Virus record (IMG/VR): IMGVR_UViG_2541047910_000003
Coordinates: 1 to 55,048 of that record
Direction: 5' to 3' (one strand)
Origin: a virus
Lineage: Duplodnaviria > Heunggongvirae > Uroviricota > Caudoviricetes
DNA length: 55,048 nucleotides
Position numbers and translations under genes: made by a program. This document shows positions 25,705-27,795 of this stretch, piece by piece; the stretch's first letter is position 1; each line of letters opens with the position of its first letter. The notes under the pieces were generated by a model. The model worked only from the letters and a program-made list of their open reading frames with translations. It searched no databases and was not told the DNA's origin.

Positions 25705-27131
25705 TACTCAATCCTTATCTGGCAGCCTGACAGAGTGACAGGTGACTTCGTGATAACGCGCAATTTGAAGCCGACATTTTTCCTGATTCGCCCGACACGC
25801 TTCCACAAAACGCGTTTGTCGTAAACGAACGGTTCATTCTGCTCAATCATCTGCTCACGACCGTAATTGATGCCGTCAGTTGTTGCAGAGAGAAAAAGGC
25901 GGTCGGCGTACTGCGCAACGCCAGTTGACGATTCAACCTCAAGGTCGAACACTCTGGCATTATCTGCTTTGAACAATGGAGTAAACAGCAGGTGTTCCTG
26001 TTGAAGGCCATATTGGCTGCTGATGTCGAACTGCAATTTCCCGGTCACGGATTCCAGCTTATCGCCGCACGTTATCTGATTGTCTTCGTAAATGAAGTCG
26101 ATAGCGCGGTACACATCGTCATACAGGCCTGTTTTCAGCACACACCATTGCGGACCATTGGCGCTTGAAGATGCGTCGTACACGAGAACATGGCGCGGAA
26201 GATGGATAATCAGCAACTCATGCGCATCAAACCGCAGCGATTCCATCACGCCATCAGCCAGTTCATCAGCAGTGTAGGAGCGTAGTATTTTCTCAATGCT
26301 CGCGCTGGCGATTGGTGATACCTGACCGGAGCCGATGATGTATACAGACGGCGCACCCGTTGCCGGATTGCTGATGAAAGCATACGAATCAGCAAACGGC
26401 GTTTTGCAGTAAGTCCCGGCAATGCCTTTCTGCACCATCAGCGATGGTTGTGCGACATACAAAGCAGCACCAACGGTGGTTGCACCAGTCAGGGAAAAAT
26501 ATTCAATCGTCGATGAACCAAAGCAGACGATGAAGTCTCGCCATGTGCCGATACCGATGATGCCGTCCGGCTGCGATTCTGCGCGATATTGTGCGCTGTA
26601 ACGGTCAGGATGCGATTCGTCTTCAAGGTCAGTGATAAACCATGAATCTGTGCCGTCTTTTGACCACGCATAACGCCCACGTAAGCGCGTAATGTCACGA
26701 ACAGAACCTAACTCATACTGCGTGAATCCGCTGTCTGTAGGCCAGTTTGAGACGGTTTTAACCGTGCCATCATAGCGGTATTCGACCAGTTGCCCGTTAA
26801 CACCTACCGCCTGTGATGTCCGACCATGTGCCATTGATACGCGACCACTTCCGGCAACATCACCGACTTCACTTTCTCCTTTGTACAGCTTGCCGCCACA
26901 CACGCGATAAACAGCACTCTGCGCCATGTTGTACTCGACGCCGCGAGATACACCGTTCACATCAGAGCGTTTGACAATGCCCGGGAATGAGCGAAGATAT
27001 CCCGATGAATTCAACACCTCCTTGGGCGTAGCTAAAAGATTGACTGGAAGTTGGTCTATATAATCAGCATTAACCGCACTTTTCCCTAATCCCTTCATTA
27101 GTGGTAGTTGTTGTATTGCCATTGGAATCAA
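25704..27131 (-). CDS. Tail accessory protein P22 gp10-like
   Basis: 475 aa (P22 gp10 472 aa), synteny. Confidence 0.75.
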
Positions 27132-27654
27132 CCTTTATATGAACCCAGTTAGCATCACGCTTTAGCCTACTTGCCCAGGTCTTAGATATCCCGTACTTAG
27201 CCGCAATTACTGACAAGCTTTCTTTTGATGACTTGATTGCAAGAACATCGTCATCACTCAACTTGTGTTTTGGGTGCTTGGTTCCGAAAAACTTGATTGG
27301 TTTCTTTAATCCTGTGGCGTATGCATGTTTGATGTTTTCGCTTTGAGTGCACCACTCAAGATTATTGACGTTATTATTGAGTGGATTGCCATCAATATGA
27401 TTTACCTGAGGCTTGTTTTCAGGATTTGGCAGGAATGTCATTGCAACGATTCGATGGGCAAAAGTCCATTTTGCTCCGATATTATAAAGCACCCTTCCCT
27501 GATTTATTTTAGGCTTTAACCAGCGCCCCTTTCTGAGTTGCGTGCTGCCATGCGCAGCCTTAACAACACGTGAGTGAGAATACACCCTGCCATCTTCTGT
27601 TACGGCATAAACACCTTCAAATCCAGGTATATCTTTAGCATTCTCAGAAAGCAT
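27070..27654 (-). CDS. Freestanding HNH homing endonuclease (NUMOD4 + HNH + C-terminal HTH)
   Basis: PGFEGVYAVTEDGRVYS (NUMOD4-like) and HIDGNPLNNNVNNLEW (HNH); AT-rich relative to neighbours. Confidence 0.8.
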   Translation of the reverse strand: MLSENAKDIPGFEGVYAVTEDGRVYSHSRVVKAAHGSTQLRKGRWLKPKINQGRVLYNIGAKWTFAHRIVAMTFLPNPENKPQVNHIDGNPLNNNVNNLEWCTQSENIKHAYATGLKKPIKFFGTKHPKHKLSDDDVLAIKSSKESLSVIAAKYGISKTWASRLKRDANWVHIKVDSNGNTTTTTNEGIREKCG

Positions 27655-27694
27655 ATCTACTCCTTAAAGTTTCGATTTTTCATGTACTTATTAT

Positions 27695-27795
27695 ATCAAA
27701 ATTGCCAACATATTCACTGGCAGATAGTCGATATAGTCGGCGTTTCTAAAGTCTTTGCCGACACCTTTCATAAGCGGAAGTTGCTGAATAGGCAT
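27695..27795 (-). pseudogene. Duplicated 5' fragment of gene 10 ([34 protein letters not shown])
   Basis: Translation matches the N-terminus of the gp10-like ORF ([32 protein letters not shown]). Confidence 0.6.

Follow-up and report, generated by a model that had tools for sequence, protein, structure and literature searches.

How can a selfish endonuclease gene lie within an essential phage gene that nevertheless appears to work? This question is raised by a stretch of tailed-phage DNA (Caudoviricetes; IMG/VR record IMGVR_UViG_2541047910_000003, positions 1 to 55,048), here called the window, in which a free-standing HNH endonuclease gene is located between gp4 and gene 10 and is flanked by two different versions of the gene-10 5′ end. 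According to gene calls and the annotated Sf6 and HK620 records, the region under study belongs to the late structural operon of a P22-like (Sf6/HK620-type) phage. It is encoded on the minus strand, as are all features placed in the window below, and nucleotides of gene 10 are counted from its start codon. We consider it likely that the locus contains a mobile cassette of ~0.8 kb, built around an I-HmuI-like HNH endonuclease, which is inserted in gene 10 and homes together with a replacement for the 5′ end of this gene.

The version upstream of the endonuclease is the displaced native one. An open reading frame (ORF) of 34 codons at 27691-27795 begins 8 nt past the gp4 stop codon, which is the gene-10 start site in Sf6 and HK620. 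Its first 92 nt (27704-27795) are 97-98% identical to the gene-10 start of the endonuclease-free phages Sf6, HK620 and CUS-3. The encoded peptide corresponds to positions 1-28 of Pfam PF11134 (E 7e-11) and also to PHROG 578, 'head closure Hc3'; judged from the sequence, its match to the gene-10 family is far beyond chance. The native homology stops after gene-10 nt 92 (window 27704), where the shared sequence ends ...GAATATGTTGGC; past this point the ORF consists of 3 foreign codons followed by a TAA TAA double stop at 27688-27693. In the window this stub keeps the native ribosome-binding site, start codon and open frame, and in identical prophages it is labelled in RefSeq as a partial 'packaged DNA stabilization protein' pseudogene. 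Its segregating sites are those of native alleles, up to 4 nt from the junction, and many combinations of these sites are found among stubs. The stub occurs only alongside the endonuclease and is absent in all endonuclease-free phages. Among the six endonuclease lineages described below, it is intact in the window type and in L209 and has lost its start codon in the other four: the stubs of L210, L205/L207 and L208 lack the first codons and the start, and that of L206 is fused to the gp4 3′ end. The original prediction that this ORF is a pseudo-N-terminus of gene 10 is therefore confirmed, and the finding that would have refuted it, the same ORF as an independent conserved gene in related phages, did not turn up. 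Salmonella phages of the P22 type, such as ST104 (L211 1857-2357 and 2317-3735; compare window 27796-27803), do not have the 8-nt gap of the Sf6 type; in them, gp4 extends 41 nt into the start of gene 10. The corresponding 41 nt at the beginning of the stub are therefore still under selection in P22-type carriers such as UPF_BP1, where they encode the gp4 C-terminus.

The point of insertion can be defined exactly. Aligned with endonuclease-free Sf6 and HK620, the window is collinear through gp4 and gene-10 nt 1-92, is then interrupted by the insert, and is again collinear inside gene 10. In endonuclease-free Sf6, HK620, CUS-3 and NM-3, gene 10 directly follows gp4 at a clean junction. The alignment with relatives that had been proposed as a check thus places the insertion exactly after gene-10 nt 92, and the element shows what is expected of a homing element, namely presence or absence at one precise site in collinear genomes. 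It is not borne by an intron or an intein, since the stub ends in two stops, gene 10 restarts at its own ATG, and no Rfam family, and thus no intron-like RNA, matched 26800-28000 at E up to 1. Its location between gp4 and gp10 and its absence from most P22-like phages also set it apart from the packaging-associated HNH endonucleases of cos phages, which adjoin the terminase genes and occur in every member of their phage group.

The working gene 10 (25704-27122), which encodes the head closure/DNA stabilisation protein (full-length match to Pfam Phage_stabilise, E 5e-296), has its most likely start at ATG 27122, as judged by homology. This start gives a gp10 of 472 aa, equal in length to those of Sf6 and HK620, and is the one used in RefSeq for identical prophages. 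It had been proposed that the gene restarts at 27131 and overlaps the endonuclease gene by 62 nt; position 27131 is merely the first in-frame TTG, and both homology and RefSeq favour ATG 27122, with an overlap of 53 nt (27070-27122) read in different frames. The same start appears to have been missed elsewhere. In the GenBank record of Salmonella phage UPF_BP1 (KX776161.1 21073-22383, equal to L001 1501-2811), gene 10 is annotated from an internal start as a protein of 436 aa. Homology instead supports an ATG located 108 nt farther upstream, within the endonuclease ORF; the deposited protein is thus 36 residues short at its N-terminus, and the stub is unannotated there.

The first 118 nt of the working gene (27004-27122) are diverged from every native allele, with 62-66% identity to those of Sf6, HK620, CUS-3, ST104 and NM-3, and identity to native gene 10 is back at 92-97% from nt ~120. 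Read codon by codon from the alignment, the first 40 codons differ from the native ones at 22 of the 30 codons capable of synonymous change, and 8 amino acids are changed as well. The stub and this replacement start are 65% identical in nucleotide sequence, and, in our reading of the alignment, the two copies share no identical run longer than ~6 nt. Moreover, the divergent stretch reaches ~26 nt beyond the end point of the stub. Because it outruns the stub and because the two copies are unequal, the start of the working gene is best seen as an imported segment and not as a resident copy. Sequence comparison thus supports 'replacement with displacement' over 'target duplication'. Of the originally predicted homing-endonuclease invasion with partial target duplication, the invasion is supported and the duplication is not, the downstream start being imported and diverged.

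The replacement start is continuous in frame with gene 10, and all of its occurrences that were found are accompanied by the endonuclease. Its identity to the working start in L209 is 82%, compared with 68% for the remainder of gene 10, and the two starts have the diagnostic residues L12, S15, Q24 and L29 in common. This difference in identity suggests that the replacement end diverged along with the endonuclease and not with the host gene. A scan with a back-translated N-terminal motif gave 26 matches in IMG/VR and 8 in metagenomes, all with the endonuclease upstream, and no replacement end lacking the endonuclease turned up in phage records, IMG/VR or metagenomes. Searches for its donor were negative or uninformative: a DNA search of phage records returned only UPF_BP1, a protein search of phage records gave nothing above 85% identity without the endonuclease, and a search of a large protein database with the 48-aa N-terminus returned short fragments only. 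NM-3 was considered as a donor, being the best endonuclease-free protein match, and was rejected, since it carries an ordinary native allele.

The endonuclease gene itself (27070-27654) is an intact ORF of 194 aa with an ATG start and, as originally predicted, an AT-rich one: its G+C content is 0.38-0.43, with 0.31-0.33 just upstream and ~0.47-0.55 in the flanking structural genes. The protein contains an HNH_3 domain (40.6 bits against a Pfam cut-off of 24.8, E 1.9e-10) and a NUMOD4 domain (35.4 bits against 23.4, E 1.3e-8), and it matches PHROG 59. Its only solved relative is I-HmuI (PDB 1U3E), matched over residues 7-116 with E 1e-8 and ~26% identity. An AlphaFold model built from 58 homologues has a mean pLDDT of 84.5, and 1U3E is also its only significant structural match (178 columns, nearly the full length, probability 1.00). 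The model shows an N-terminal sheet (strands at 16-65), the HNH core and three C-terminal helices at 134-165; predicted DNA-binding modules, the NUMOD4 sheet and the C-terminal helical domain, therefore stand on both sides of the core. In the alignment H86 corresponds to I-HmuI His75 and N107 to Asn96, as expected of an HNH (beta-beta-alpha metal) catalytic core, and N85, H86, N98, N107 and H110 are invariant in the 58 homologues. Between lineages, the body of the protein has 0.08-0.17 non-synonymous versus 0.6-0.9 synonymous differences per site. In contrast, the last 17 residues (178-194), which are encoded entirely within the 53-nt gene-10 overlap and are predicted to be disordered, show non-synonymous differences at or above synonymous ones and hence no constraint at the protein level. 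The body is thus under strong purifying selection and the overlapping tail is not. The match to homologues elsewhere ends at about residue 173, and the tail results simply from reading through into gene 10. All 27 copies of the ORF on viral contigs are intact. Altogether, sequence and model indicate a maintained, probably active endonuclease, which is a new member of a known family.

Between the stub and the endonuclease gene there is a short region that may drive its expression. The left edge of the insert is formed by a box resembling an extended -10 promoter, TGATATAAT (27690-27698; an exact match), followed by a leader (27655-27689) in which the Shine-Dalgarno sequence AAGGAG precedes the ATG by 5 nt. 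The sequence TG[A/C]TATAAT (TGnTATAAT) is found directly after the junction in all six endonuclease lineages, with varying neighbouring bases, and the leader block AATCGAAAC..GGAGTAGATATG is common to all lineages and to a related endonuclease at the gp10|gp26 site. A standard promoter/terminator scan did not flag a promoter for the endonuclease. It flagged a weak hairpin at 27703-27722, which is mostly native coding sequence and is left uninterpreted. Folding of the leader RNA was no better than that of shuffled sequence. Since neither the scan nor the motif count given below lent support, the case for a promoter is made by the conservation of the box across lineages. It suggests that the element supplies its own transcription and could be expressed from a prophage, which would fit the observations on strain STEC308 described below; this is the weakest step of the mechanism that we propose.

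The window type belongs to an older and wider family. In a large protein database, endonucleases 69-83% identical to that of the window were found on contigs L205-L210, which represent other P22-like prophages. In these the endonuclease occupies the same site and overlaps gene 10 by 47-53 nt, and every one of the lineages has a gene-10 stub ending at the same junction (...PVNML[A]). In the divergent lineage L208, the called gene-10 product (3560-5353) has 597 aa in place of 472, owing to either an extension or a fusion on the C-terminal side. The family also includes a second endonuclease, with an overall identity of 55%, which is located between gene 10 and gene 26 in phage HZ41 (L004 1095-1640), E. 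coli MB53 (L005 1095-1640) and ~16 E. coli genomes. No gene-fragment stub accompanies it at this second site. The DNA of its leader and of its first ~47 codons shows 87-89% identity to window 27515-27678, and the rest is much more diverged, which looks like an exchange of modules between endonucleases with different targets.

The distribution of the cassette carries the signature of mobility. Among 5426 complete E. coli genomes, 919 hold this gp4/gp10 region and 18 have the cassette (18/5426, or ~2% of those with the region). It was also found in Salmonella phage UPF_BP1, in 27 IMG/VR contigs, one of which (L091) is identical to the window over the whole region compared, and in 8 metagenome contigs. 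Across these more than 35 contigs, the cassette is near-invariant (~0.5%), and yet four unrelated gp4 types, of 153, 160, 166 and 187-193 aa, are found upstream of it. Pairwise diversity is 0.54% in the leader and endonuclease and 0.63% in the replacement start, in comparison with 3.8% in the stub and 8.3% in the rest of gene 10. Per-site polymorphism in 27 haplotypes delimits a near-invariant core at 26986-27707, which comprises the insert and the replacement 5′ end and is common to all carriers; the first polymorphic sites that flank it, 27708 and 26985, are variable in native alleles too. Tight linkage is confined to the heterologous core, which is spread over diverged backgrounds. An element less diverse than its flanks, with chimeric flanks at the junctions, is what co-conversion is expected to leave. 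The low diversity at 27708-27735 was considered as a co-conversion tract; native alleles are invariant there too, so that it says nothing about tract length.

Two cases show the chimeric flanks most clearly. UPF_BP1 has a P22-type coat gene and gp4, and its stub is of the P22 type for the first ~54 nt, 41 of which encode the gp4 C-terminus; the stretch that begins at stub nt ~54, includes gene 10 and ends in the start of gp26 matches the E. coli-type window at 94% identity. In E. coli STEC308 the cassette is present twice, once in a complete P22-like prophage and once in a degraded remnant; the two copies differ by one base over ~1150 bp and by ~5% thereafter. This pattern suggests, at the level of sequence comparison, conversion between co-resident elements. 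The two copies (L203 and L204) are at ~1.597 Mb and 3.512 Mb of the chromosome, and in the remnant both gp4 and the tail-needle gene are truncated. The pattern recurs in STEC306 and STEC307, and in ET729 the cassette likewise occupies two places. Decay of the element can be seen as well: in ES5 (L006 1864-2447) a 1-bp frameshift has broken the endonuclease ORF into pieces of 83 aa and 108 aa, and in metagenome contig L201 (QZLW01004587.1) the upstream part of the endonuclease is replaced by sequence like the C-terminus of IS21-family IstB, apparently from an inserted IS21-type element. When a one-genome-per-species set was scanned with the HNH protein, full-length matches reached at most 49% identity and lay in unrelated contexts, the set being too sparse for a rare prophage cassette; a few short matches to the HNH core, up to 72%, were in unrelated contexts as well.

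These data are consistent with the following mechanism. The cassette consists, in this order, of the promoter-like box with the leader, the endonuclease gene and a diverged substitute for gene-10 codons 1 to ~40 with its own start. This substitute joins the resident gene in frame at ~nt 119, so that gene 10 stays functional, and the first 92 nt of the resident gene are left upstream as a dead stub. I-HmuI acts only a few bases away from the point at which it is inserted, and the enzyme described here would likewise nick or cut endonuclease-free gene 10 near the insertion point. Its predicted target is native nt ~88-138, because this is the sole stretch that neither copy in the carrier reproduces. 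The break would be repaired from the carrier genome, with the stub and gp4 (where homologous) serving as the left arm and gene 10 from nt ~119 as the right arm, and in this way the recipient would acquire the whole cassette, from the promoter box through the endonuclease to the replacement start. With the two copies 35% diverged, carriers would be immune to cutting, and the direct-repeat recombination that could delete the element would be blocked as well.

Several observations weigh against such a homing cassette. Cleavage and homing are inferred, the enzyme having been assigned by sequence and fold only. Asn85 stands at the place of the I-HmuI metal ligand Asp74; it is invariant in the subfamily and, to judge from the homologues, probably normal for this group of endonucleases. 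The motif TGNTATAAT is not enriched, with 3 occurrences in the window versus 2.2 expected by chance. The share of carriers is low (18 of the 919 E. coli genomes with the region), and no endonuclease-free donor lineage was found, so that the founding event cannot be reconstructed. Finally, it is conceivable that the cassette was spread by ordinary homologous recombination among mosaic P22-like phages, in which gp4/gene 10 is already a module boundary. In its strong form, this last point makes the cassette a passive passenger, moved by ordinary homologous recombination only, with an HNH protein that is inactive or unrelated to homing. P22-like phages are indeed highly mosaic, endonuclease-free ones also mix gp4 types with similar gene 10, carriers are infrequent, and the activity of the endonuclease is a deduction. 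We nevertheless regard this as unlikely, given that strong purifying selection acts across lineages that keep the same site and design, that the core is near-invariant in backgrounds 8% different, that an identical 1.15-kb tract occurs in two otherwise diverged elements of one genome, and that fold and catalytic residues match a proven homing endonuclease.

The low prevalence of carriers bears on another alternative as well, namely that the endonuclease is chiefly a weapon against gene 10 of competing endonuclease-free P22-like phages or prophages and that homing is a by-product. The target gene is essential, the conserved promoter-like box could permit expression in a prophage, and an intron-encoded endonuclease is reported to confer a competitive advantage of this kind in phage PhiPA3 (PMC11620839). 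However, a strong advantage should have made carriers more common, and the idea is compatible with the homing cassette; as an explanation of its own we find it very improbable. Hardly more credit, and if anything slightly less, can be given to a tandem duplication of the gene-10 start that came first, followed by landing of the endonuclease between the copies and divergence of the downstream copy in place. It would account for two copies of a ~92-nt segment flanking the endonuclease in direct orientation. Nevertheless, the upstream copy is 97% native and the working copy 62-66%, with 22 of 30 synonymous codons changed, and divergence in place would not have spared the dead copy; moreover, the divergence continues ~26 nt beyond the duplicated part, and, at 82% identity, the downstream copy resembles the endonuclease-linked end of a different lineage in which the remainder of gene 10 is 68% identical. 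It is least credible of all, to the point of being negligible, that the 34-codon ORF encodes a functional small protein, such as a decoy of the gp10 N-terminus. The native ribosome-binding site, start and open frame kept in the window, and the intactness of the ORF in all close copies examined, would agree with a function, but it is absent in endonuclease-free phages, its first codons and start are lost in 4 of 6 lineages, one of them fused to the gp4 3′ end, and its variation mirrors that of native gene-10 alleles.

The closest described design is found outside phages. Fungal mitochondrial 'mORFs' carry a foreign gene end, as in Allomyces macrogynus atp6, in Glomus sp. atp6, atp9, cox2 and nad3, in Rhizopus atp9 and in Mortierella cox2 (PMC3630166; also PMC7487136). 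The mORF duplicates are 64-81% identical to each other, and the native copy is 91-98% identical to element-free relatives (PMC3630166). As in mORFs, a free-standing endonuclease is linked here to a diverged end of an essential gene, the imported end is in frame and used, and the native end is displaced and kept as an unused duplicate, with 65% identity between the copies and 97% between the native one and relatives. Unlike mORFs, which replace the 3′ end and have the endonuclease downstream, the phage cassette replaces the 5′ end and has the endonuclease upstream; its enzyme is of the HNH type and resides in a tailed phage or prophage, whereas those of mORFs are LAGLIDADG or GIY-YIG enzymes of the mitochondrion. 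In addition, the replacement start in the phage depends on a ribosome-binding site of its own and lies partly within the endonuclease ORF. Thus the linked in-frame foreign end and the displaced native duplicate that define mORFs are both found here, and the enzyme families, the 3′-end position and the mitochondrial setting are not. The phage cassette works like the mORF class and is not a member of it by descent.

Free-standing HNH endonucleases are common in phages. The present one shares with I-HmuI, the nicking enzyme of Bacillus phage SPO1, the predicted order of sheet, HNH core and helical domain. Unlike I-HmuI, which resides in a self-splicing group I intron, the cassette has no intron, and the function of the gene is kept by the replacement 5′ end. 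T4-like phages also have free-standing endonucleases inside genes, such as mobE in Aeh1 nrdA, mobA in T4 gene 39/60 and a seg gene in gene 43 (PMC2988022). These cases resemble ours in that a free-standing endonuclease interrupts an essential coding region without an intron or intein. They differ in that the T4-like insertions split the gene into two reassembling polypeptides (PMC2988022), whereas gene 10 is unsplit here, its N-terminal part being supplied anew and the old one discarded. In the literature that we searched, neither this cassette in P22-like phages nor, more generally, any phage endonuclease that replaces a gene end was found, and as most subscription journals lay outside the search this absence is not proof. 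The arrangement has no phage description that we found; the documented design is that of fungal mitochondria.

A further parallel is artificial. Synthetic 'home-and-rescue' gene drives cleave an essential gene while supplying a recoded rescue copy of it that resists cleavage; they are Cas9-based and operate in diploid animals. Design issues of a related kind have been described for gene drives (PMC6176634). The phage cassette is like such drives in that a nuclease directed at an essential gene is combined with a recoded replacement that restores its function and would be immune to cutting, and unlike them in being natural and protein-guided; the resemblance is functional only. More tentatively, with the balance of our judgement slightly on the doubtful side, the cassette may represent a long-lived HNH family specialised on the gene-10 5′ end, a natural 'home-and-rescue' system inserted within the essential ORF, with a cut-immune replacement end, its own promoter active in prophages and the stub as left homology arm.

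The surroundings of the cassette are those of the late structural operon. Upstream of the stub lie the genes for the portal (30670-32868), the scaffold (29772-30656) and the coat protein (28489-29760), a small hkbT-like ORF (28261-28446) and, as the immediate neighbour, gp4, the head-tail adaptor (27804-28286; Pfam P22_Tail-4, E 3e-74); the tail needle gp26 (24751-25704) follows gene 10. Directly after the coat gene, a strong G+C-rich hairpin followed by a T-run (28467-28484) corresponds to the 't coat' terminator annotated in Sf6 and HK620.

For practical purposes, some database records, such as that of UPF_BP1, give gene 10 a wrong or truncated start. The first ~40 gene-10 codons of carriers have a history separate from that of the rest and can mislead phylogenies, and modules of the Salmonella type and the E. 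coli type are exchanged at a boundary that coincides with the edge of the cassette. The system lends itself to experiments, since Sf6, HK620 and P22 have been studied extensively as models. More generally, the cassette would represent a third way for a selfish endonuclease to exist in an essential phage gene, in addition to splitting the gene or residing in an intron or intein: the element itself supplies anew the part that it severs. The same logic was later devised by engineers for rescue-carrying gene drives. If a specialised 'home-and-rescue' family does exist at the gene-10 5′ end, it would convert co-resident or superinfecting phages and thereby carry structural genes between the phages of E. 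coli and Salmonella.

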